Positions 2-12,127 are shown, numbered from the stretch's first letter. The stretch is 41,785 nucleotides of DNA from an uncultured bacterium (GCA_964458995.1 CAYWKW010000003.1:1-41785); one strand, 5' to 3'. Notes: generated by a model from the letters alone, not told the origin. Translations and numbers: made by a program.

Positions 2-376
2 GTCGCATTCTTAGATATTATGACTCAGGGAAAAACAAAAAAACAGGCCCTCCAAATGATCGAGGATGCCGTATTGGAACTTCTTTTGGATTCATATGAA
101 GAAATAAATAAAAAGTTCAATTTAAGTGTGAGTGAATATGAAAATGGAGTTATCGGTCTTGGAGCATCGGATGATAAATATCTTTTAGCATTAGGTTTAA
201 AAAGACAAAGAGAAAGGGCGGGTACAACGATTCGTGAAGCTTCTAAGAGATTAAAATCAAAATCGCCAAATGCTTATGCAAGATATGAAAGAGCTAGGGC
301 GAAGCCCTCTATTGAAAAATATAGCCAACTACTTCATGCAGCCAGCCCTAAAAGGCGTCCTCTATTGTTAAGTTAA
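2..376 (+). CDS. HicB-like antitoxin with C-terminal XRE-type HTH, 5'-truncated by the window edge
   Basis: The frame is open from base 2 (VAFLDIMTQGKTKKQALQMIEDAV), which fits the HicB 'TQG.T.EEA..M..DA' pattern. The C-terminal LKRQRERAGTTIREASKRL..KSPNAYARYE is HTH-like. Confidence 0.7.
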   Translation, partial: VAFLDIMTQGKTKKQALQMIEDAVLELLLDSYEEINKKFNLSVSEYENGVIGLGASDDKYLLALGLKRQRERAGTTIREASKRLKSKSPNAYARYERARAKPSIEKYSQLLHAASPKRRPLLLS

Positions 377-1790: not shown

Positions 1791-2399
1791 TCAATTGGGC
1801 AAAGTCGCTTGAATCCAACCTCTCAATTCTTCAACTATCGCATCGAGGTCATCTGATGAAAGTTCAATACGCTGGTCTTTAGAAAATGACGGCAGGGTAT
1901 ATTGTAAATATTTTAAATTGTAAGAGTATACAAATTTCCCTTCTTGTGGGATGTCTTTATGATGTGTCAACCTATCTCGAACTGCCTTCAGGTAATCCAT
2001 AATAGGCATGATTTGCTTATCGGCCATGCCTTTCTTTTGCAAAACATGTACTTTAAATTCATCCCATTTATTAAAAATTGCACACAAACAATCTTCAAGG
2101 GCAATCCGATGGTTTAATCCACCTCTTTCATTATTTCTTTTATATGCTCCCTGCGTCATGCGATGCTTTTCTCTTCGCGCACACTCTTGTAAATCTGGCG
2201 ATGGTGGATGATTACTTCGAATGATGTACGCCTGGTCTAGTTGCTCTATAGAGATTCCTAATCGCTGTTGACTCCACTGCTGATTCTGCAATAAGTCCTT
2301 ATGATTTAAAAGAAAGCCATGGGTAGAATCCAGAAATACACCAAATCTTTCATTCAAAAAATCGAGGAATTCTGAGATTTTTTCTGAATATTTCACCAT
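1791..2399 (-). CDS. Hypothetical helical protein with RxxxxH (HEPN-like) motif
   Basis: 202-aa ORF 3 bp downstream of the protease. YLKAVRDRLTHH matches the R-x4-H HEPN pattern, but the motif is short, so the family call is tentative. Confidence 0.55.
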   Translation of the reverse strand: MVKYSEKISEFLDFLNERFGVFLDSTHGFLLNHKDLLQNQQWSQQRLGISIEQLDQAYIIRSNHPPSPDLQECARREKHRMTQGAYKRNNERGGLNHRIALEDCLCAIFNKWDEFKVHVLQKKGMADKQIMPIMDYLKAVRDRLTHHKDIPQEGKFVYSYNLKYLQYTLPSFSKDQRIELSSDDLDAIVEELRGWIQATLPN

Positions 2400-2402
2400 A
2401 AT

Positions 2403-3158
2403 CTATCGACCAGCATGTTTTAAAATTTGTTCAAAGACGAGTGGCTTCCAAACGCGGCAAATGTCAGAATCATCACAAATTCTGCCAGAATAAATCCCCA
2501 TAAACTTTGTTTGAAATCCCCCACTCAAAACGAAATGACCTTCACTCGTATGATAACCGCCATTCATCCTAAGTACCACAGGTGACCCCGACAAACCTGA
2601 TCGACCAGAAGCATTAACGTAAAACAAAGGCATTTCATCAATATCTATATATGGCTCCGAAGCAATGGATCCGGTAACCCAGATAGGTAATATGCCACCT
2701 GCCGCCTTTCCGAATGGAAAGCCAATTATGGAGACCGGCATAGCGGGAACAGGAATCATATCTGTATTAGCTAAACTCAAACTAAGCTTATTTATTTGAA
2801 TTGTCTCAATGACCTTGAATGGCAATAAAATAACATCAATTTTGCAACCTGTCGGATGTTCGAGCCATCTTTTTTCTTCACCTCCATCTTCATAAAGGTG
2901 AACTTTTACTGCGACCCATTCTAATTTATTTGTCGCAGGAGATTTCTTATAGTGCCATATCACAAAAACATTTGGCAATCCACCGGACTTGCTTAGAGTT
3001 TGTCCCGTATCTGCATTTTTCCCAGTCACTACATGCCAATTTGTCGCGAGATATAATATGTCATTTTTTTCGATAACAAATCCAGTTGCTACTCCTAGCT
3101 TTGTCTCGTTGAAATATTGTTCAATCAAAAGGCTTGTTGTGCTTAAAAAATCAATCAT
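2403..3158 (-). CDS. Trypsin-like serine protease
   Basis: ATGF, LATNWHVV (His), IDVILL (Asp) and GLSGSPV (Ser) motifs. No signal peptide or PDZ domain. Confidence 0.85.
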   Translation of the reverse strand: MIDFLSTTSLLIEQYFNETKLGVATGFVIEKNDILYLATNWHVVTGKNADTGQTLSKSGGLPNVFVIWHYKKSPATNKLEWVAVKVHLYEDGGEEKRWLEHPTGCKIDVILLPFKVIETIQINKLSLSLANTDMIPVPAMPVSIIGFPFGKAAGGILPIWVTGSIASEPYIDIDEMPLFYVNASGRSGLSGSPVVLRMNGGYHTSEGHFVLSGGFQTKFMGIYSGRICDDSDICRVWKPLVFEQILKHAGR

Positions 3159-3270
3159 TATTATGAAATCTCATTATATTTAATAAAGAAGAACAATCGC
3201 TATATTATTCGAACTTCATTCTTGTGGGTTGTATTTTAATATGAATGCCTATTTTTTATAAATTAGCATC

Positions 3271-4344
3271 TTAATCCCGTTGAAAAGATTCAAACTCACG
3301 ATAACGATTCATGTCTGACTCACTTAGAGGAGGTTTGAATCTTGCAGCTTCTGCTTCCAATAAGCTCATGGATATCAATTCATTATCTTGCATAGCTTTC
3401 AGAGCTGCGTTATTGACTATCAGTTGTACATCAGAGGAAATCAAACCTTCTGTAATCCGTCCGAGGGTCTCGCAATCAATATCATTTTTTACTGGCCTAT
3501 TCTCTAAAAACAGCTTAAATAGTTCGGTTCTAGCATCGAGATCTGGAGGTGGGATGAAGATCCTCTTATCCATTCTCCCTGAACGCAGGATTGCCGAATC
3601 GATTCGTTCAGGAAAATTAGTCGCTCCTACCACTAGAATTTTCTTTTTTACACAACCTTCCATCAGCATTAAAAACTCGCTGATTTCAGCCTCCCTGTAT
3701 TGATCAGTGGAAGAGAGGCCATCTCTTCTTGGCATCAAACCTGAGATTTCATCTACAAAGAGAACGCATGGAGCAATCTGCTCAGCCTTTTGAAAGGCTT
3801 CCGCAATGTTTTTTGATGTAGCATGAATATAGGGACTGCCAACGGTTCCTTCACTTAACTCAATAATTTCAGCTCTGAGGGCTTCTGCTAACTTGTTGGC
3901 TATAAAAGTCTTGCCGCAACCAGGCGGACCGAAAAAAAGAATGCCATTAGAAGGAGTAACTCCGTATTTTTCGTATTCTTCCCAGTTCAAGAATGGCTGA
4001 ATTACATCTCTAATCAGGGTATTCTTAAGTGTGGCCATTCCAGCTATGGCATCCAATCCCCTTCTTTTAAGAAGATTTTTCAGCCTTTCAGGAATATCTC
4101 CATCTTTGTGATCAGGGTATCTTTTCCCGATAACCTCTGCCCCGCTTATAAAGAAGGTTTCATGAGAAAGCTCGCGATTTTTAAGTTTTTTTGCAATTTC
4201 CTCTTCATGAAATAGATAAAGATATTCCCCTGTATCCAGATTGAATACTTCAACGAATTGCTGCTTATCAATTCTTTTGAAAATCTTGGCTCCACTAGGC
4301 AAAACCCACCCAGGAGGAAATGATGGTTTAGCAAGCGTTGTCAT
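3271..4344 (-). CDS. Classical-clade AAA+ ATPase (single CDC48/FtsH-type module)
   Basis: Walker A GPPGCGKT, Walker B VLFVDE and SRH ATNFPERIDSAILRSGRMDK. ATGA overlap with the upstream gene. Confidence 0.92.
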   Translation of the reverse strand: MTTLAKPSFPPGWVLPSGAKIFKRIDKQQFVEVFNLDTGEYLYLFHEEEIAKKLKNRELSHETFFISGAEVIGKRYPDHKDGDIPERLKNLLKRRGLDAIAGMATLKNTLIRDVIQPFLNWEEYEKYGVTPSNGILFFGPPGCGKTFIANKLAEALRAEIIELSEGTVGSPYIHATSKNIAEAFQKAEQIAPCVLFVDEISGLMPRRDGLSSTDQYREAEISEFLMLMEGCVKKKILVVGATNFPERIDSAILRSGRMDKRIFIPPPDLDARTELFKLFLENRPVKNDIDCETLGRITEGLISSDVQLIVNNAALKAMQDNELISMSLLEAEAARFKPPLSESDMNRYREFESFQRD

Positions 4345-6203
4345 TCTTCCTCCTCAGCAAGTTTTAAAACGTATTGGGCTATTTCTTTATCAGAATACCC
4401 CTCCTTTCTAACAGTCTTAAGAAGATCAGGTTCATTTTTCTGCATATATTGAATGAGTTGATTTTCTTCATAAGTTAAAATCTGTGATGGAGAAGTTGGG
4501 GGCGAGGAGCTAGCTCGATAAGTAGGCTTATGAGACGATTTTGGTGTAGGTATATCGTTATCCATTACTACTAGGAAATAGAAGGCGATTGCAGCCCCCC
4601 ACCCTATCCATTTCCACATCTTTTTTTGCTTAAGACCGCGAATCCGACGATAGACAATACTATAGCATACAGCACCACCAAGCAGTCTTATTGCAATTTG
4701 CGTATTTTCATTCTCTTGTCCATTGGCAAGTACATCTATTAATTTTAAGCAAGATTCATGCTCATATATTAAGTTTGGAAGTTCACAGCTTTTTAATGAA
4801 GCTAACATGTTGTCTATTACTTTCAAGGGATCGGATCTGTCGCTGGTGAGCTCTACAAAACTCAATAGAGAAATACGATTCTCCAATACCTCTACTACGT
4901 ATTCGAAAGCAAGTATCGCATCCCTATGATTCCGCCCGTTTAAGAGTCCATCGATTGCAAGAATCTCGATGCCAAACTTTTTCTGCTCGAAAAGCTCATG
5001 GCCTTTCTCTACTAATTGGGAACAAAAGCTGATAAGCAAAGTTACTCTGATACCGATGACCGATTCATCGTCCTTCTTTGCCAACTCATCGTCCAATTTA
5101 AGGTAGCTGCTCTTAGCTTCTTCAATCTTTCGTTCTGCGATAAATTCTTTAACACTGTCGAATTGGGGGGAAATAGTTTTCCACAATATGTTTTCTTTAA
5201 GTTGTTTTTTATCAGCCTCAATCTTGTTTGCAATTACATCTGATATTGCAAACTTAGCTCCTAGATCAAGGAATATTAAAGCCAACTCTATATTGTCATC
5301 CTTATTATAGATGTCAATTGAGATGGATCTTAGTTTTTCAGCAGAGTCATTCCTAAGAACAGTCAGAGGCGAATATTCAGAAAGCGCAAACTTATCAAGC
5401 TCCAGAAATTGATTATGGATTTTCTTAAGTACGCGCTTGACTAAACTTGCATTATCAATTGATTCGGAAGCAATTTTCTCCAGCTCTTCTATTTCTTTTT
5501 TAATCTTAAGAACGATTGGCTGGAGTACTTCGACATCTGTAGATTTTCCAATCTGACCAAATGTATGGTAATAAATGCCAACAACTTCAGGATTTTGAGT
5601 TTGGTGATAGAAAGAAACTGTCTGGGCTGATAAAGACTCATAAATGGAGGCTCTGAATTCTTGAAATAGGGACGAAGACGTTCCTAATTCATCATGAAGC
5701 AAATAGTACTTTTCATAGAAATTCCAAAACTCATCAGACTCCACAATGCTCTTCCATGACTCTAAAGAGCGGCGAAAAACTTTAATATCAAAGGAATCAA
5801 AGGCTTGGAAAAACAGAGCCAAAGCTAAATTCTTATACTTCAGCCATTCCACACTTGCTTTATCTGTTTTCTCTAGGATATCGATAGATTTTGAATAATT
5901 TCCCTTAGAGATCAGAGTAATGGCTTTCTGATTTTCTACATTGTGGTCATCAAACCAGAAAAAGACTTCCCTTAGTCGATCCTTAATGCCTGAGAGCCTC
6001 TCTAAAGCTACCCGTACTTCGTTTTCATTCCGAAATTCACAGACATGCCCGATATCTATATCAAATTCTTGTACTTCTTCAATTTTAGCGAACTGCAATA
6101 AATGCTGGGCTCTCTTTTTGATTTCCTTTAATGTAGCTGAAGAAGAAAGTCCTAAGATGTTGAATGAATTTCTGATCAAAACTTGAGGTAGTTGTACGGT
6201 CAT
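4341..6203 (-). CDS. J-domain-like (no HPD) helical/TPR-like protein with C-terminal transmembrane segment
   Basis: N-terminal NSFNILGLSSSATLKEIKKRAQHL resembles J-domain helices I-II. Long helical body and TM WIGWGAAIAFYFLVVM. ATGA overlaps on both sides. Confidence 0.7.
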   Translation of the reverse strand: MTVQLPQVLIRNSFNILGLSSSATLKEIKKRAQHLLQFAKIEEVQEFDIDIGHVCEFRNENEVRVALERLSGIKDRLREVFFWFDDHNVENQKAITLISKGNYSKSIDILEKTDKASVEWLKYKNLALALFFQAFDSFDIKVFRRSLESWKSIVESDEFWNFYEKYYLLHDELGTSSSLFQEFRASIYESLSAQTVSFYHQTQNPEVVGIYYHTFGQIGKSTDVEVLQPIVLKIKKEIEELEKIASESIDNASLVKRVLKKIHNQFLELDKFALSEYSPLTVLRNDSAEKLRSISIDIYNKDDNIELALIFLDLGAKFAISDVIANKIEADKKQLKENILWKTISPQFDSVKEFIAERKIEEAKSSYLKLDDELAKKDDESVIGIRVTLLISFCSQLVEKGHELFEQKKFGIEILAIDGLLNGRNHRDAILAFEYVVEVLENRISLLSFVELTSDRSDPLKVIDNMLASLKSCELPNLIYEHESCLKLIDVLANGQENENTQIAIRLLGGAVCYSIVYRRIRGLKQKKMWKWIGWGAAIAFYFLVVMDNDIPTPKSSHKPTYRASSSPPTSPSQILTYEENQLIQYMQKNEPDLLKTVRKEGYSDKEIAQYVLKLAEEEE

Positions 6204-8683
6204 AGTGTAATCCCAGATTTCACAAATCGGACCTGAGGCTTACAATCAGCTTCTGCAAATGCAGCAAGAGCATAATATGCTTCTTGCATTTCTCTTATAT
6301 CTGACTTGGCAACGGAATCTTGAGCTCTCTTGATCAGATCTGGAAGAGAAGAATGGAGATGAGCTTTTTTTTGTGCTTGCTCTATTGAGTCTCGTATCCA
6401 CTGAGTTACAATACGTTTGTCATAATACATACATTTGAAATATAGCTGATCCAGCTTCTGGACAATGTGCGCTATCCATACTGCATCTTGCTTAGATACG
6501 GCAGCCGACCCCTCATCTCGAAGAGATTTATAAGCTGTTTCATATTCGAGACGTTTTTCTTGCGGATTACAGTCCTTGAGATAATCAGTCAGGTCTTGGC
6601 ATACCTGCCCAAAAGCAGCAACATTGCTAGTAAATTTGGTTTCTGCTTCTAGTTGGTCCAAGGCCATCATCAGATCCTTTACCAGCTTCTCTGCCTTTCT
6701 AAGCTGATCTAAATCCGATCCTGAGCCATCGATAGTGGACTTGATGTCTTTAATCATTTCTTCTATGACTTTAGTCGCATTTGCGATCTCTTCAGAGGTC
6801 GTCATAGATTCAAAACGCGATACCTGCTCTGTAAAATCCTTCTTTACCTGTTCGATTTTGGCAGCATCAAAGTACAAGGTCTCTCTTGCGTTGAGAGTAA
6901 TATCAATGTCTGGGAGATTGGCCACCACAGTCAACTCTCTAGATTCATTAATCTCTATGGTGATATCAACAGGCGCCCCTCTTTTTAGGTCTTTAGAAAT
7001 TGCCTTACCGGTGATTGCTAAGTGGCAGACCAGGGTATTTCGATTTGTGATCAGAGATTCTCCTTCATAGATGCAAATCGGTAGAGCGTTCTCAGAAGAC
7101 CCTGCTTTTAAATCTACTAAGGTATGAAAACGTTTTTTCGATTTAAGAGGTAAAATGCTGTTTTTGGAGAAAAAGAATTCCATTGTCTCCGTAGGCTCTG
7201 CATATCCCTTCTGGGAGGAAACAGAAATCACAGATACGCCGATAGAATAAGGAAGAGGAGCCCCCATGATAGAAACGCCACGGTTGATGTGAATGCTTTC
7301 GGGAGAGCAGGTAATCAGTTGTCCGCTAGTGTTTTTGACATATATCCAGTAATGAGTGCCCTTTTTACCTGTAGGAAGTGTTAGTATGAACTTGCCATTT
7401 CGGATCAGGACCTCTTCAGATGTAAAGGAGTCATCTGAGCTTGCAAACTGAACATAATGCGGCTGAGAGGATTCTACTGAGCGCAAAATCTTGCCGGTGA
7501 CAGTTTGCTCGTCATCCGATGTTACTGGATTGTAATTTACTTCGAGCTGACAAGAGATACTGGCTGAATCGATGTTTCCTTGTTGTTCAACAACTGAGAT
7601 TGCCGTTTGATTACCAAACATAGCAGCACCTTTTGCAACGACTGTGAGAGGGTCGAGGGATCCATCTACCTTTTTTAGCAGTGTATCTTTCAAGAATGAC
7701 TGCAAAATAGGCATCTGAGTCGGTCCTCCGACTAGAACGATCTTTTGGACTGTTGCCGGGTCAACCTTTGCGTCATTTATTGTTTTTTTGCAAAGATCGA
7801 CCGTTTTATTAAGCAGGTGTTTACAGCTTTCTAGAAGGTCTGTTCTAGAGACTTCAATGGAATGCTGAATCTGTATTTGATTTATTTGGGTATCGATGTC
7901 GATAGTAGTTTTATCACTGACAGTAAGTTCAATTTTTGCAGATTCAGCTAACTCTTTCAAATAGCTAAAGATTTGAGAATGAATTGTTGGATCAAGAACG
8001 ATGCCCTTCGAAGAAAGGAAAGGGAGGATCAGACTTTGTATAATCGCTGCATCGATGTCCTTCCCACCGAGAAAGTTATCTCCTGCATGGGCAAGGACAG
8101 TGAGAGATCCGTCACGGGATGCTACAAGAGCAACGTCAAAAGTACCTCCGCCTAGATCGTATACAAGCCAGTTTTCATTTTTCTGATTGAGAAAGCCGTA
8201 TGCGATTGCTGCTGCAATAGGCTCTTGAAGAAGAACTATTTGCTTAAAACCCGCCAAGATTCCGGCTCTTTTAGTTGCCTCAGACTGAACAGTAGAGAAG
8301 TAAGCAGGGACAGTAATTACTGCAGCATCTAAAAACGTATCTGGATATTTCCTTTTAGCATCCCCTCGAAGGGTTTTTAAAATTTCAGCAGAGATTTCCT
8401 CTGGTAGCATTCTTTTATTTAAATTCGGGAATGTAATACTCTCAGCAGTTCCCATAAGGCGTTTGATCTCGGCCTTGCTATTCTGTAGATTTTCTTTCGA
8501 ACTATTCATGACGCGTTTTGCTTTAGAACCAATGATGATGTTTCCATTCCTATCGGCGTAAATCACTGAAGGCGTGCTTTCATCTCCCAAAGCATTTTTA
8601 ATAATCTGAACCTCGGCTTCTTTAACAACGGCAATTGAAGAATTAGTAGTACCAAGATCTATACCTATTTGAATTGTTGACAA
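6200..8683 (-). CDS. Atypical Hsp70-family protein (827 aa)
   Basis: IGIDLGTTNS, TPSVI, AVITVPAYF, EPIAAA, YDLGGGTFDVAL, LGGKDID and VLVGG motifs. TTG start with GGAGG RBS. Confidence 0.92.
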   Translation of the reverse strand: MSTIQIGIDLGTTNSSIAVVKEAEVQIIKNALGDESTPSVIYADRNGNIIIGSKAKRVMNSSKENLQNSKAEIKRLMGTAESITFPNLNKRMLPEEISAEILKTLRGDAKRKYPDTFLDAAVITVPAYFSTVQSEATKRAGILAGFKQIVLLQEPIAAAIAYGFLNQKNENWLVYDLGGGTFDVALVASRDGSLTVLAHAGDNFLGGKDIDAAIIQSLILPFLSSKGIVLDPTIHSQIFSYLKELAESAKIELTVSDKTTIDIDTQINQIQIQHSIEVSRTDLLESCKHLLNKTVDLCKKTINDAKVDPATVQKIVLVGGPTQMPILQSFLKDTLLKKVDGSLDPLTVVAKGAAMFGNQTAISVVEQQGNIDSASISCQLEVNYNPVTSDDEQTVTGKILRSVESSQPHYVQFASSDDSFTSEEVLIRNGKFILTLPTGKKGTHYWIYVKNTSGQLITCSPESIHINRGVSIMGAPLPYSIGVSVISVSSQKGYAEPTETMEFFFSKNSILPLKSKKRFHTLVDLKAGSSENALPICIYEGESLITNRNTLVCHLAITGKAISKDLKRGAPVDITIEINESRELTVVANLPDIDITLNARETLYFDAAKIEQVKKDFTEQVSRFESMTTSEEIANATKVIEEMIKDIKSTIDGSGSDLDQLRKAEKLVKDLMMALDQLEAETKFTSNVAAFGQVCQDLTDYLKDCNPQEKRLEYETAYKSLRDEGSAAVSKQDAVWIAHIVQKLDQLYFKCMYYDKRIVTQWIRDSIEQAQKKAHLHSSLPDLIKRAQDSVAKSDIREMQEAYYALAAFAEADCKPQVRFVKSGITL

Positions 8684-8977
8684 AATGCCTCCATATGGAC
8701 TTTAAATTCTACAGAATTATACAGATAACCTATTGATAAATAAACTGAAAATAAATATAATAAATAAAATAAAAATTGATGCTATCAAATTTATTCAATT
8801 ATGAAATGAGAAGTAAATAATGAATCGTGGTGGCTTTTCTTGGGGCGATTGTTAGGAATTTCTGCATTTAAGGCTAGAATCTCAAGAGCAATAGGTATCC
8901 CATTGACTAGATCAGAAAGGCAGAGGAAATTAGGGGCTTTTGTTGAAAAAATTTATCAAGTATTTCATATTCAATTA

Positions 8978-9553
8978 TTAAACGACTAATTCGTGCGCAC
9001 TCAAGCCAAACAACTTGAGAACTTCGTGCCTCTTTAGCAGCTTTCTATGGGGCGGGAGGAGGTGCGCCTGTGTTCTTCGAAAATAAATCCTTTTTAGATG
9101 GTTCTCAAGAGTCCCTATCAGATTATGGATATCATTAAGAGTACTACAGCTTTTTTTATATTCTTGGGCTGCTAATCTGGAATTAGAAATATGGCCTACA
9201 GGATGTAGCCCAAAAAGATTTCTTCCACCGGCCTCATTCACTGCCTTAGCAACCCTGTGATCTCTGGCTAAGGTTGCCAATTCTACATCAACAGATTTTT
9301 GAAATTCTGCATCTTTAGCAACTAAACCTGGCACATAGTGTCGTTTGAACAGAAGGTGCTCGATTTTCTCTCCCAGCCGCTCCGCATAAGCATAGAATCT
9401 TTGATAGCATTCCTTATAAATAATCACATGCTTTTGAGGTTCATTTGTTGTTTGTGAAATTATAGTTTCTAATCCGTCCAAATAATCAACAATCTCATCA
9501 ATTTCTCTGTTTAGCGGAAGTAGGAATTTTTCATATTCATGTTCATCCATCAT
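8978..9553 (-). CDS. Hypothetical protein
   Basis: 191-aa ORF downstream of the XRE gene, with GAGGA RBS. The C-terminus RKLLKRHEVLKLFGLS weakly resembles the start of an AlpA-type HTH. Confidence 0.6.
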   Translation of the reverse strand: MMDEHEYEKFLLPLNREIDEIVDYLDGLETIISQTTNEPQKHVIIYKECYQRFYAYAERLGEKIEHLLFKRHYVPGLVAKDAEFQKSVDVELATLARDHRVAKAVNEAGGRNLFGLHPVGHISNSRLAAQEYKKSCSTLNDIHNLIGTLENHLKRIYFRRTQAHLLPPHRKLLKRHEVLKLFGLSAHELVV

Positions 9554-9580
9554 AACTATTTTTGATCCTCATATTAATTA

Positions 9581-9805
9581 TCATTCATCCAAAAAATATC
9601 CGAAAGGCTTCTCTAACGTCTTTGCGATTTTTTCTAAACTTTCGAGTGAAGGGATCGATATTCCCGTCTCATAGCGAGAAATGCTCTTTTGCTTAGCTTT
9701 GATCAGCTCGGCGAGCTGATCCTGACTTAGATCCTTCTCGATTCGAGCAAGCTTGATTTTTTTTCCTAATTTTTTTTTGTCCATATTCAAACTTTTCTTT
9801 GTCAA
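9581..9805 (-). CDS. XRE-family HTH transcriptional regulator (start may be the ATG at 9784)
   Basis: LGKKIKLARIEKDLSQDQLAELI...SISRYETG..IPSLESLEKIAKTL is a typical HTH_3 sequence. Confidence 0.9.
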   Translation of the reverse strand: MTKKSLNMDKKKLGKKIKLARIEKDLSQDQLAELIKAKQKSISRYETGISIPSLESLEKIAKTLEKPFGYFLDE

Positions 9806-9829
9806 AATATACCTTTAGTGGTATATTTT
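9804..9829. promoter_or_regulatory. Candidate operator palindrome between the XRE gene and the recombinase operon
   Basis: aaaatatacc-tttagt-ggtatatttt is a perfect 10-bp inverted repeat with a 6-bp spacer in the divergent promoter region. Confidence 0.55.
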
Positions 9830-9874
9830 AGTCTTTAAAGGAATAAAATTCCGTTTCGAAGGCAAGAAGATCCA

Positions 9875-10039
9875 ATGGCCATACTGGCAAAAGACGAACA
9901 GCCTCTAACCGAAGAAAGCATAAGCTTGAATTATTCGGACAACGCTGCCGTCAAACGGCTTCTCGATGTTATCGTTTCCATTCTTGCTGAAGACTATATC
10001 CAAACCGCTAAAGAAAATCCTGAAATTTTTTCAAAATAA
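9875..10039 (+). CDS. Small protein (54 aa) upstream of the recombinase, candidate directionality/accessory factor
   Basis: MAILAKDEQPLTEESISLNYSDNAAVKRLLDVIVSILAEDYIQTAKENPEIFSK*. Its stop abuts the GGAGG RBS of the recombinase. Below the ORF-track cutoff. Confidence 0.6.
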   Translation: MAILAKDEQPLTEESISLNYSDNAAVKRLLDVIVSILAEDYIQTAKENPEIFSK

Positions 10040-10049
10040 GGAGGCCTCC

Positions 10050-11720
10050 ATGAGAGTTGCCATTTACGCTCGATACTCATCAGAGAATCAGAGCGAAAAG
10101 AGTATCGACGACCAAGTTCGCGTTTGCCGTAAGCACATCCAAGAAAACGGCTTCTTCTTTGATGAGAAGCACGTGTATGCAGATGAGGCCATTTCAGGAT
10201 CAGTTATTCAGAGGCCTGGATTACAGGCTTTAGAAAAAGCTATGGAGAACAAAGAGTTTGATGCTGTTGCTGTCGACGATCTGTCCCGACTTTCCCGAAG
10301 CAATCATCAAATGCTGACATTGGTCAATAAATTCGCTTTTTACCAAGTGAAGATCATCTCAGGCTCAGATGGCATTGTTACCGATGACGACAACTCTAAG
10401 CTGGGAGTTCATATTCGCGGACTGATTAATGAATTGTATCTGGATGACTTGAGAAAAAAGACCATGCGTGGACTAGAGGGCCAAAGATTGAGAGGATACA
10501 ACACTGGAGAGAGCGTTTATGGCTATAAGTCTTGCCCTGTTGGAGAACTAAAGCTTAATAAAAAAGGCCAGCCCAAATACGAAGGCATGGTTTTGAAAAT
10601 TAATGAGGAAGAAGCCTCTATTGTTAGACGCATTTTCAAAGAGTTCAACGAGGGCAAAAGCACCCATGCAATTGTACGGGATTTGAATATCGATAAAATG
10701 CCCACAAAGAAAAACAAGTCTGGCGGCTGGGCAACTTCTACTGTCTGTAGAATCCTAAAGAATGAGAAATACGCAGGCCACTGGATTTGGCGAAAATATA
10801 AAAACGTAAGAGATCCAATGACAGGTAAATCTAAGAAAGTTCATCGATCAGACAAAGACCGGATCATCTCTTTTAAAAAGGAGCTTTGCATTATCGATGA
10901 GGATACTTGGGAAAAGGCAAAAAAGAGGTGGTTAGAATTGGAGGGAGCTTGGCCAATGAATAAACAGTCCAAGAGAACCTCTGGAAAGGCCATCAGCTAC
11001 GTCCATTCTAACCCCACTCACCTCTTCGCTGGTCAGATGCAGTGCAAGGCATGCGGAGGGGCAATTGTCCAGGTTTGCGGCAAAGCCGGTGGGTATTACG
11101 GCTGCTACAACGCAAGAAGGAAAACCTGCACCAACAAGTTGACGATCCGGAGAAGCCGTGTAGAGGATATCCTGCTAAGTTCTCTAAAGGAGAGAATTCT
11201 AACTGCTGAGAATCTGAAGTACATCTATGACAATGTAGAGAAGATTGTTGCAAAGAGCTTGAACGAAGTTCCTGAAGAATTGAAGCTAAAGAGAGCTCAG
11301 CATGAAAAAGTACAAACTGAACTGCAGAATTTGTTGAACTTCATAAAGTCTGGGAATTTTTCCAAGCTGGTATCAGAAGCAATTACAGATGCTAAAGGTC
11401 GCAGTGAAAGATTGAAACATGAAATGCAGTCTATGGAATTTCAGACGAAGAATGCTTTCAAAGCTCCACCTAAGGAATGGATTCAGCATCGGCTGGATAA
11501 ATTGATCGAAACATTAAAAATGAACACCCAAGCTTCTGCTTTAGCTCTGAAGGATTTATTGGGAACTATTGAGATGGAAGGTGTACCTGGAGAATGTATG
11601 GTTGAGTCTGGAAATCTTCTCCAGACTAAACCTTACTATGTGGCCTATTCCAGTATCGATACCCTTGCGCTCATGGATGAACCCAAGGGTACGAATTGGT
11701 CTCTACTACGGAAGAGGTAG
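10050..11720 (+). CDS. Large serine recombinase (resolvase, recombinase and zinc-ribbon domains), 556 aa in the integrated state
   Basis: MRVAIYARYSS (catalytic Ser), SIDDQ, DEAISG..RPGL, DDLSRLSR, YGY, ILKNEKYAG and C-KAC...YYGC...C zinc ribbon. GGAGG at 10040-10044 supports the ATG at 10050. Confidence 0.95.
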   Translation: MRVAIYARYSSENQSEKSIDDQVRVCRKHIQENGFFFDEKHVYADEAISGSVIQRPGLQALEKAMENKEFDAVAVDDLSRLSRSNHQMLTLVNKFAFYQVKIISGSDGIVTDDDNSKLGVHIRGLINELYLDDLRKKTMRGLEGQRLRGYNTGESVYGYKSCPVGELKLNKKGQPKYEGMVLKINEEEASIVRRIFKEFNEGKSTHAIVRDLNIDKMPTKKNKSGGWATSTVCRILKNEKYAGHWIWRKYKNVRDPMTGKSKKVHRSDKDRIISFKKELCIIDEDTWEKAKKRWLELEGAWPMNKQSKRTSGKAISYVHSNPTHLFAGQMQCKACGGAIVQVCGKAGGYYGCYNARRKTCTNKLTIRRSRVEDILLSSLKERILTAENLKYIYDNVEKIVAKSLNEVPEELKLKRAQHEKVQTELQNLLNFIKSGNFSKLVSEAITDAKGRSERLKHEMQSMEFQTKNAFKAPPKEWIQHRLDKLIETLKMNTQASALALKDLLGTIEMEGVPGECMVESGNLLQTKPYYVAYSSIDTLALMDEPKGTNWSLLRKR

Positions 11721-11735: not shown

Positions 11736-11843
11736 GAGCTTCGCTCGTTGCTACCGGGCCGGCGATTTTTTTCGGGTTCAACCGAAAAAAATTCGAATCC
11801 TACCACGAAACGCACGCAGGTGCGTTTCTTCTTCCGATAAAAT
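11709..11843. repeat. tRNA-Ser 3'-end-regenerating palindromic repeat, unit A (135 bp)
   Basis: Direct repeat of 1428-1534 with an extra hairpin tttttttcgggttcaaccgaaaaaaa. Directly abuts the tRNA 3' end. Confidence 0.9.
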
Positions 11844-11930
11844 CGGAAGAGGTAGGATTCGAACCCACGGACCCCTCGCGAGGCCTCCTGTTTTCAAGAC
11901 AGGTGCAATCGGCCGCTCTGCCACTCTTCC
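11844..11930 (-). tRNA. tRNA-Ser (anticodon UGA), CCA not encoded
   Basis: Minus strand GGAAGAGTGGCAGAGCGG...CCTGT-CT-TGA-AA-ACAGG, long variable arm, GGTTCGAATCC...CTCTTCCG. Confidence 0.97.
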
Positions 11931-12127
11931 AAAATAAGGTACAATTCTACAATGTTTAAGTAGTTAACTTCAAGGAAATTTGGCGAAGTTCCACTTAACC
12001 TTTTTCTCGAAGAGCAGATGAGCAAAGCGAATCCGCCTAATGGACGAGCGAAGCTCGCCTGAGGGCTTCTCCCCCGCTTAACGCTAATTTTCAAAGAAAA
12101 TAGCGGAACTCAACCTGAGGTAAGCCC

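Follow-up and report, generated by a model that had tools for sequence, protein, structure and literature searches.

The locus described here raises the question of whether five co-oriented genes on a mobile island form a single system and, if they do not, which of them belong together and what they might do. It is part of a 41,785-nucleotide stretch from an uncultured bacterium (GCA_964458995.1 CAYWKW010000003.1:1-41785; this whole stretch is referred to as the window), and the source genome is a 1.9-Mb metagenome-assembled genome (MAG) with 86% completeness. An initial annotation, made from the sequence alone, combined an atypical Hsp70 (Hsp70L), a J-like membrane protein, an AAA ATPase, a trypsin protease, and a HEPN-like protein of 202 amino acids (aa; p202) into one candidate defence system. 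The layout given there was borne out by the open reading frames (ORFs) and the sequence (Table 1): the five genes are co-oriented, ATGA overlaps can be read directly at both the Hsp70L/J-like and the J-like/AAA junctions, an AT-rich spacer of 112 bp lies between the AAA and protease genes, and the coordinates leave 3 bp between the protease and p202 genes. The grouping fared differently. Comparisons among genomes and metagenomes indicate that the genes for Hsp70L, the J-like protein, and the AAA ATPase (the trio) constitute a conserved, horizontally mobile, and translationally coupled cassette, possibly with an upstream gene for a helix-turn-helix (HTH) protein, whereas the protease and p202 belong to other modules.

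For the J-like protein, a word search found homologues in 48 clusters, which led to 12 genome loci in Parachlamydiales and Chlamydiae, in MAGs labelled 'Verrucomicrobiae', and in Babeliaceae MAGs. The Hsp70L gene is directly upstream of the J-like gene in all 12 loci and the AAA gene is directly downstream in all 11 that are long enough; the flanks vary from locus to locus. A second trio is present in the window's own genome (contig C53, approximately 5732-11393, minus strand; locus L019), with 75, 51, and 79% identity for Hsp70L, the J-like protein, and the AAA ATPase, respectively. This copy also has ATGA-type overlaps, and neither a protease nor a p202 gene is found beside it. The initial annotation had asked whether these genes co-occur in other genomes. 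The neighbourhoods of the homologues show that the trio does, as one unit with the same order in the 12 loci, again in the second copy, and in the metagenome loci described below. Its distribution is sporadic. The J-like protein was found in two of 13 other genomes of the genus and in none of 27 further relatives, and 10 of 401 genomes of the phylum have it when the window's own is counted, two of the 10 being fragments. Across the 12 related loci, identity to the window is 69-83% for Hsp70L and 70-79% for the AAA ATPase, compared with 45-63% for the J-like protein, which diverges fastest. At one locus from a 'Verrucomicrobiae'-labelled MAG (L001, 7522-10004), the Hsp70L gene is in three pieces in different frames and is frameshifted or mis-assembled; the J-like and AAA genes are intact. 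Another locus (L008, 1062-1571) encodes a 169-aa protein with a canonical J-domain, including the HPD motif, about 1.5 kb upstream of the trio. Weak matches to the 74-aa HTH gene of the window are present on both sides of the C53 trio.

The protease and p202 do not follow this pattern. Neither has a match in any of the 12 related trio loci or beside the C53 copy. Trypsin homologues are present in seven other genomes of the phylum (n = 401), with no conserved neighbour and no trio. Homologues of p202 are present in three other genomes (n = 400), where they adjoin GNAT, S41 peptidase, and F-box genes and have no trypsin gene within 1.5 kb. In about 400 genomes of the phylum, trypsin and p202 homologues never adjoin each other or the trio; each of the three modules is rare and is distributed independently of the others, and only one genome (G011) holds two of them, on different contigs. 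An F-box protein (F-box-like, 3.6e-12), which is a eukaryote-type domain, is encoded directly upstream of the p202 homologue in a chlamydial genome (L023, 2220-2831).

On their own, both genes have features of interest. The protease has H42 (TNWHV), D108 (DVILL), and S190 (GLSGSP), which we read as a putative catalytic triad, and it matches the PADLOC candidate PDC-S45 (7.3e-14, residues 3-225). The 'S' in this name presumably stands for a single-gene candidate, and the protease has both the model match and the stand-alone gene that define PDC-S45. In p202, the motif R141-x4-H146 is invariant in 12 aligned sequences and agrees with the Rx4-6H motif of HEPN proteins. This motif supports the 'HEPN-like' label of the initial annotation, but p202 has no Pfam, NCBIfam, or PADLOC match and its profile has no PDB match, and its named Atlas neighbours are HEPN families at 0.79 only, which is a weak lead.

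Had all five genes formed one defence system, a chaperone/AAA sensor would control trypsin and HEPN RNase effectors. The common orientation and short gaps, the PDC-S45 match, and the invariant Rx4H motif are all in keeping with this model, and a non-orthologous Trypsin_2 gene is directly downstream of the operon in one metagenome locus (L081, described below). However, neither supposed effector is found in any of the 12 related loci or with the second trio, and elsewhere their homologues stand alone or beside unrelated genes. The five-gene system is rejected because the protease and p202 do not travel with the trio, and we regard it as extremely unlikely. A promoter-like site in the 112-bp spacer also speaks against it, although the promoter and terminator counts of the whole scan equal those of shuffled sequences; the scan thus leaves separate transcription of the protease pair unsettled. 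In terms of gene content and distribution, the region is a mosaic of three unrelated modules on one serine-recombinase island rather than one five-gene system. Therefore, the trio, and not the five genes, is the unit for experimental design.

The trio of the window in turn is a reduced form of a widespread uncharacterised operon. Among 1.84 billion representatives, 436 clusters matched a profile of the J-like protein at E<=1e-3, of which 223 did so at E<=1e-10, and the conserved part of the family is the first ~340 residues. With residues 380-827 of Hsp70L as the query, 109 clusters were found, mostly of proteins of 823-845 aa, and the source names among these relatives include Levybacteria and Bacteroidales; the taxonomic range of the wider family is read from a few such source names plus two plasmids, as no taxon name is on record for any of ten broad-family J-like proteins looked up. 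When metagenomes were scanned with a sub-alignment of the broad J-like family, 55 loci were obtained. An Hsp70 of ~835 aa is directly upstream of the J-like gene in all 49 loci with room for it, and an AAA gene is within the next three ORFs in all 30 with room. The usual order is a small HTH gene, a ~175-aa GrpE-like protein, Hsp70, the J-like protein (~545 aa), one or two ~205-aa proteins, AAA (~359 aa), and a ~102-aa DUF6804 protein. Pfam GrpE was matched by all five of the ~175-aa proteins sampled, three of them above the gathering score. The inserted proteins include members of the RDD and Yip1 families, or a single-pass protein, and the DUF6804 protein encoded last has two or three hydrophobic segments. 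In six loci (L070-L072, L074, L076, and L079) the J-like gene is directly followed by AAA, as in the window.

This larger GrpE-containing operon was missed in the initial annotation, as were the co-oriented HTH and 191-aa (p191) genes upstream of Hsp70L. By BLAST, the HTH gene of the window is homologous to nine small ORFs that precede the operon in metagenomes, and an HTH_3 gene is also the first gene in L081. The p191 gene stands where the large operon has its GrpE-like gene. As a GrpE-like protein it was rejected (hhalign probability against GrpE-like proteins, 0.7%), and a hidden Markov model (HMM) built from 37 of the metagenome upstream proteins found no GrpE-like ORF in the 12 chlamydial-type loci or the window at E<=1. 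The Atlas neighbours of p191 are RiboL-PSP HEPN clusters at 0.83-0.84, which is a lead only. The gene starts 27 bp after the HTH gene, and RNLFGLH in the protein is an Rx5H string. These two genes may form a separate HTH/HEPN-like pair that is not part of the chaperone operon. The initial annotation had also observed that the window has no grpE or canonical dnaJ, and a six-frame Pfam search of the whole genome agreed: none was found on the window's contig, and the sole matches were the host's own genes on contig C46 (grpE and dnaK) and contig C87 (dnaJ).

More distant relatives are found on plasmids. In Haliscomenobacter hydrossis, pHALHY02 (L024, 5187-12712) has a distant variant in which the gene order differs; it encodes a CFI-box-CTERM protein with a J-like N-terminus, a coiled-coil protein of the membrane, Hsp70 (841 aa), an AAA protein (604 aa), and TerB, and it adjoins brxL and pglZ of a BREX system. 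The Pseudomonas plasmid pSDM007 encodes an unannotated 706-aa protein, a 117-aa protein, and an 833-aa Hsp70, and the 706-aa protein reads as TPR-like.

Table 1. Positions and matches of the genes in the window and of selected genes flanking the operon in the metagenome locus L081.
Feature	Sequence	Position	Strand	Size and matches
Hsp70L	window	8683..6200	minus	827 aa; Pfam HSP70 5.8e-84, residues 6-358 (nucleotide-binding domain only)
J-like protein	window	6203..4341	minus	620 aa; without Pfam family
AAA ATPase	window	4344..3271	minus	357 aa; PF00004 AAA 8.1e-33
Trypsin_2 protease	window	3158..2403	minus	251 aa; Trypsin_2 2e-07
p202 (candidate HEPN)	window	2399..1791	minus	202 aa; without Pfam family
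XRE-type HTH protein	window	9581..9805	minus	74 aa; HTH_3 1.3e-14; second gene upstream of Hsp70L
p191	window	8978..9553	minus	191 aa; no Pfam, NCBIfam, or PADLOC match
Large serine recombinase	window	9966..11720	plus	584 aa; Resolvase 6.3e-28, Recombinase 3.6e-22, Zn_ribbon_recom 4.8e-06
tRNA-Ser (TGA)	window	11843..11931	minus	ARAGORN; at GC boundary of island
Gabija-like pair and Cas4/DUF2779 nuclease	L081	8-5325		upstream of operon
Trypsin_2	L081	14379-15665		428 aa; non-orthologous to that of the window; directly downstream of operon

The island setting proposed for the window is upheld by low GC content (0.37-0.42 over 1-11 kb, compared with 0.43-0.55 beyond), the large serine recombinase, and the tRNA-Ser gene. 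The recombinase is likely the mobility gene of the island. The left border is not seen because the window starts at the contig end. Near that end are a 118-aa HTH_3 ORF (20-376, plus strand) and three short minus-strand ORFs (445-678, 671-1117, and 1297-1599), the second of which has weak P-loop matches alone (ABC_tran, AAA_23, and nSTAND3). The ORFs in positions 1-1700 look like remnants of a broken ATPase gene.

Hsp70L combines a DnaK-type architecture with loss of the canonical linker and of the R167 contact. An AlphaFold2 (AF2) model (mean predicted local distance difference test score, pLDDT, of 84) begins with a nucleotide-binding domain (NBD; 1-360), which is followed by a beta-rich insert (~378-470), another beta domain (~480-600), and a long helical lid (610-807). 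Foldseek matched this model to full-length DnaK and BiP (E 7e-42; template modelling score, TM, of 0.70-0.81 of the target), so a substrate-binding domain (SBD) is present, and the model has the DnaK-type succession of NBD, SBD-beta, and helical lid. The ATP-site motifs DLGTTNS and DLGGGTFD are kept. The canonical interdomain linker, which in DnaK is the conserved hydrophobic DVLLLD (PMC13580251), is absent: all 27 aligned Hsp70L sequences have a beta-rich insertion of ~100 residues at the VLLLD position, whereas the genome's own DnaK retains VLLLDV. In addition, DnaK R167, which is described as binding the Asp of the J-domain HPD motif (PMC8215388), is replaced by V in 19, E in five, I in two, and A in one of the 27 sequences, and is R in the genome's own DnaK; we infer this position (E. 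coli numbering) from the conserved EPT motif. The equivalog cut-offs of the NCBIfam Hsp70 models were not reached, with 287 vs 648 bits for PRK00290 (the best) and 251 vs 708 bits for HscA.

A further feature is the extreme C-terminus, where an SGIT/SGIM tail follows a disordered stretch (window coordinates 6203-6230). Tails of SGIT type are found in 22 of the 27 aligned sequences and in all 38 metagenome copies longer than 800 aa, with KSGITL in the window and, for the majority of the metagenome copies, LSGITR; they are missing from the most distant relatives, which are of Bacteroidales type. The EEVD tail of eukaryotic Hsp70s docks on TPR co-chaperones, and the SGIT tail is reminiscent of it by analogy.

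The J-like protein has an HPD-less N-terminus resembling a J-domain and a TPR-like helical body; its C-terminal part comprises one hydrophobic helix, a linker rich in Ser and Pro, and a conserved domain of small size. The N-terminal motif of the family is NAYxxLGL..SA.QKEI.KR.KEI...LKIDD.PEY..D...RTE.SVK.A...L.SPKKR. Among the family representatives listed, just two of 145 have HPD, and the window protein has KIEEVQEFD where HPD would stand. None of 15 members matches Pfam DnaJ (PF00226), even at E<=1. An hhalign comparison with 13 true J-domains aligned residues ~7-78 with J-domain residues 2-61, weakly but in register (E 0.0039 with probability 8.7%, and E 0.03 with probability 1.7%). 'J-like' is a reasonable description that does not amount to demonstrated homology; the alignment in register agrees with the label of the initial annotation, which had missed the lack of HPD. 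Similarly, the 'membrane' label is consistent with a hydrophobic segment (529-547) within a long predicted helix (499-548), but the mean Kyte-Doolittle value of this segment (1.44) is below the threshold used (1.6).

Beyond its N-terminal 71 residues, the AF2 model of the J-like protein is a confident helical-repeat body. A specific fold relative of this body was sought and rejected, with generic TPR/solenoid matches alone (TM <0.25) and P58IPK at TM 0.12-0.15. The best matches of the family profile in the PDB have E 0.18 and 0.59 only, the latter a J-domain over helices I-II. The idea that the C-terminus of the chlamydial J-like protein is a fused ~205-aa single-pass protein of the large operon was also rejected, as no HMM match was found; the two are alike in layout alone (transmembrane segment, Ser-rich linker, and small domain). 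Taken together, the loss of HPD in the J-like protein and of R167 and the linker in Hsp70L suggests that the two proteins co-evolved a private interface, which would insulate them from the housekeeping chaperones.

The AAA ATPase has, as read from its translation, intact motifs, namely Walker A (GPPGCGKT), Walker B (VLFVDEI), the second region of homology with its arginines (GATNFPERID..RSGRMD), and a pore-loop Tyr. It has the features of classical AAA proteins (Cdc48/FtsH/PAN clade), with a single ring and a family-specific N-domain of ~95 aa, and among solved structures it is closest to the D2 ring of Cdc48/VCP (9.7e-83). It also matches IetA of PADLOC (6e-32). With the NCBIfam IteA equivalog (NF042959) it scores 101.5 bits, compared with a cut-off of 510, and the CDC48, PAN, and FtsH models score higher.

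These parts could also be assembled into a motor for translocation or extraction at the membrane, with a station of J-like, RDD, Yip1, and DUF6804 proteins, a ratchet of Hsp70L and GrpE, and the AAA ATPase as the unfoldase. Such a motor would help host-dependent bacteria to import or export proteins or to turn over their surface structures. A precedent is the mitochondrial Hsp70 ratchet, which works with the J and J-like proteins Pam18 and Pam16 and with Mge1. The occurrence of HPD-less J-like, GrpE-like, and membrane proteins in one operon agrees with such a motor, as does the chlamydial J-like protein with its own hydrophobic helix and small conserved domain beyond. The named carriers include Chlamydiota, Babeliaceae, and Levybacteria, all of them host-associated lineages. 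However, no secretion or pilus genes are conserved beside the operon (among the families listed), a lifestyle function would call for a much less patchy distribution, distant relatives are also carried by plasmids of free-living Haliscomenobacter and Pseudomonas, and the membrane topology (N-in, C-out for the J-like protein) is predicted only. We consider this motor improbable.

The genomic neighbourhoods contain many mobile elements. For the 12 trio loci, 148 of the 159 neighbour ORFs within 7 kb were scanned, and the 11 ORFs of the window were scanned separately; for the large operon, the scan covered 146 of the 167 ORFs of >=100 aa in 32 metagenome loci, with the 21 shortest left out and L053 and L065 set aside as duplicates of L052 and L064. 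Counts are raw, without a background comparison, and refer to the 25 commonest families listed. The trio flanks have five tyrosine integrases, three AbiEi/AbiEii pairs, one NotI endonuclease, primase zinc ribbons, DUF5906, DUF927, and IstB, and two of the 148 ORFs have DnaJ domains (bulk Pfam scan). The large-operon flanks have eight to ten large serine recombinases of the same three-domain type as that of the window, three to four DNA methylases, two AbiEii, two Fic/SoFic, two Schlafen-AlbA2, one AIPR, and two HerA-type proteins, as well as four S49 peptidases, three NfeD, and two Trypsin_2 proteins. In L081, an IMG/VR contig, the operon is preceded by an OLD-TOPRIM ATPase and a UvrD helicase (a Gabija-like pair) and by a Cas4/DUF2779 nuclease (Table 1). 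The initial annotation had named conserved housekeeping loci as a setting that would argue against its proposal; the flanks are instead variable and rich in mobile elements with defence genes, and housekeeping genes are mixed in. From this gene content, the setting appears to be mobile accessory and defence cargo.

A viral origin was considered and rejected. The chlamydial J-like profile has no match in viral contigs, the broad profile has one, in a contig of island-like content (L081), and no phage structural gene is found among the ten flanking ORFs scanned there, although the contig is filed as viral. The broad J-like protein likewise has no match in 50,697 phage records or in plasmid records. 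A different idea is that the cassette serves the mobile element itself, for example by folding its replication, assembly, or transfer proteins, or by countering host defences. In favour of this idea are the constant linkage to recombinases, integrases, and primases, the XRE-type regulator as the first gene, and the classical dependence of phage and plasmid replication on DnaK, DnaJ, and GrpE, as in the disassembly of the lambda O-P-DnaB complex and of RepE dimers by chaperones (PMC8215388). The lack of matches in phage records is at odds with it, and the elements that flank the cassette are diverse (tyrosine integrase with primase, serine recombinase, and plasmids), so it is not a requirement of any one type of element. 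We regard service to the element itself as very unlikely.

The interpretation that we tentatively prefer, with confidence somewhat short of even, is that the cassette encodes a membrane-tethered Hsp70/AAA remodelling machine, carried as mobile cargo and used in conflict or defence against phage or rival elements. In this machine, the C-terminal helix would hold the J-like protein at the inner membrane. The J-like protein would recruit Hsp70L via its HPD-less N-domain or, by analogy with EEVD-TPR docking, via the TPR-like body clamping the SGIT tail. With its ATPase site and DnaK-type SBD, Hsp70L would capture exposed polypeptide segments and pass such clients to a hexamer of the Cdc48-like AAA ATPase, which would thread and unfold them. 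In a conflict, the machine could work at the membrane to seize or dismantle the proteins of a rival element or an invading phage, or such proteins could trigger it; it may act as the sensor for foreign protein that was proposed initially. Conflict seems the most likely use in view of the sporadic distribution, the occasional duplication, the fast divergence of the J-like protein, and the placement in mobile elements among defence genes. The more general claim that the operon and the chlamydial trio represent a broad, unrecognised class of chaperone-based immune systems, which would recognise the proteins of phages or plasmids as membrane-level clients of a dedicated Hsp70 machine, is possible but rather doubtful. 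In such a class, clients could be destroyed through the AAA unfoldase, or the client load could be turned into an abortive response at the level of the membrane.

Several observations weigh against a conflict machine of this kind. The operon encodes no recognisable toxic effector (nuclease, NADase, or pore former), and all of its parts are of proteostasis type. Hsp70L matches no PADLOC model, and the IetA match of the AAA ATPase reflects general AAA similarity because the IteA score falls short of its cut-off and the CDC48, PAN, and FtsH models score higher. The flanks include RecA, enolase, catalase, tRNA synthetases, and RNase PH. Among the viral contigs scanned, L081 is the sole one with the operon, and it resembles cellular or island DNA. 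As for the J-like protein, homology to J-domains is marginal by hhalign probability, and the N-terminal 71 residues have pLDDT <50 in the AF2 model. Contact between this protein and Hsp70L is deduced from gene order because both partners have lost the canonical J-Hsp70 contact. Finally, the trio of the window is without a GrpE-like gene.

The proteostasis-type composition leads to the main alternative, a mobile module for proteostasis or stress tolerance, in which Hsp70, a nucleotide-exchange factor (NEF), the J-like protein, the unfoldase, and the membrane proteins would provide quality control of host proteins. The clients would most likely be membrane proteins, and their extraction or disaggregation would benefit the host of the mobile element under stress. 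All components resemble chaperones or unfoldases (GrpE-like, DnaK-like with an SBD, and Cdc48-like AAA), the operon includes membrane proteins, the S49 peptidase, NfeD, and Trypsin_2 genes counted above are among its neighbours, and a Trypsin_2 gene is directly downstream in both L081 and the window. One precedent is provided by the transmissible islands for heat resistance and protein quality control, which carry ClpK/ClpG, small heat-shock proteins (sHsps), FtsH, and DegP. For a specialised, membrane-directed Hsp70, a precedent is HscC with DjlB and DjlC, and a review proposes that HscC chaperones membrane proteins (PMC8215388). However, the distribution in the phylum is highly scattered (10 of 401 genomes), two divergent copies are present in one 1.9-Mb genome, the J-like component diverges fast, and the recombinases and the AbiE, Gabija-like, BREX, and methylase genes associated with it are no less in keeping with conflict cargo. 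No sHsp or ClpB-type gene was found among the island ORFs scanned. We consider this module a serious possibility, though a somewhat unlikely one.

Reviews of bacterial Hsp70s recognise DnaK, HscA, and HscC (PMC8215388, PMC13580251), and one refers to other DnaK derivatives as unexplored 'dark matter' (PMC13580251). The present analysis defines one such derivative with fixed partners, namely a J-like family of at least 436 clusters, a Cdc48-like AAA ATPase, its own GrpE, and membrane proteins. The changes that would uncouple Hsp70L from the housekeeping system are the lack of HPD, R167, and the canonical linker, together with the conserved SGIT tail. Whichever function holds (immunity, transferable proteostasis, or a membrane motor), the cassette offers a compact and testable link between a bacterial Hsp70 and a Cdc48-type unfoldase. 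If the immune interpretation is true, immunity would be based on the folding state of proteins rather than on nucleic acids or small-molecule signals.

The initial annotation recognised no named system in this locus, and the same result was obtained here: PADLOC finds none as a system, and neither the trio nor the operon is described in the open full-text literature, beyond which subscription papers and supplements may hold a prior mention. The term 'DUF6804' is not mentioned in the open full-text literature searched. Among known systems, DnaK-DnaJ-GrpE is similar in the NBD, SBD-beta, and lid of Hsp70L and its ATP-site motifs, in the GrpE homologue of the wider operon, and in the register of the J-like N-terminus. 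It differs in that Hsp70L is ~830 aa with an insertion of ~100 aa for the VLLLD linker and a replaced R167, that the partner lacks HPD, and that the trio is linked to AAA and membrane proteins and is accessory and mobile in a genome that keeps its own dnaK, grpE, and dnaJ. The J-domains of DjlB and DjlC carry HPD, unlike the partner of Hsp70L, and the present cassette also differs from HscC-DjlB/DjlC in the insertions of the 827-aa Hsp70L, the AAA gene that is always present, and the GrpE of the wider family. HscC is 550-580 aa with deletions in the NBD and needs no GrpE or other NEF, and DjlB and DjlC are J-domain proteins of E. coli (PMC8215388); the likeness is that of a specialised, sporadic Hsp70 with a dedicated membrane-anchored co-chaperone, the anchor being predicted here. 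Hsp70-ClpB/Hsp104 shares the combination of an Hsp70 system with an AAA+ threading motor, but the AAA ATPase here is single-ring and Cdc48-D2-like, with a novel N-domain, rather than two-ring with an M-domain, and it is encoded in the same operon and linked to the membrane. Compared with IetAS, the AAA match to PADLOC IetA and the protease gene downstream are similar. However, IetS is a subtilisin-type (S8) protease whereas the protease here is of Trypsin_2 type and is not conserved with the AAA gene, and with the low IteA score the locus does not qualify as IetAS.

Chaperones can mediate the detection of phage proteins, as described for bNACHT25 with DnaJ (PMC12169576) and for toxin-antitoxin-chaperone systems (bioRxiv 10.1101/2024.02.24.581848). 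Those systems use host DnaJ or a SecB-like chaperone with a toxin or nucleotide-binding leucine-rich repeat (NLR) effector, in contrast to the dedicated chaperones here, which have no recognisable toxin. Hsp70-like proteins are also found in predicted conflict operons, namely CnuD in CoCoNuT (PMC11090510) and an Hsp70 with GrpE and a DnaJ-FNIII fusion in the GAP1-N2 GTPase theme (PMC7159879). These are built on McrB-like or GAP1-N2 GTPases, and the Walker motifs of CnuD are degenerate; in the present operon there is no GTPase or McrC, Hsp70L keeps DLGTTNS and DLGGGTFD, and its partners are a J-like/TPR protein and a Cdc48-like AAA ATPase. Judged by gene content and motifs, what is new here appears to be a specialised Hsp70 system coupled to an AAA unfoldase, with partners unlike those of the GTPase-based Hsp70 conflict systems.

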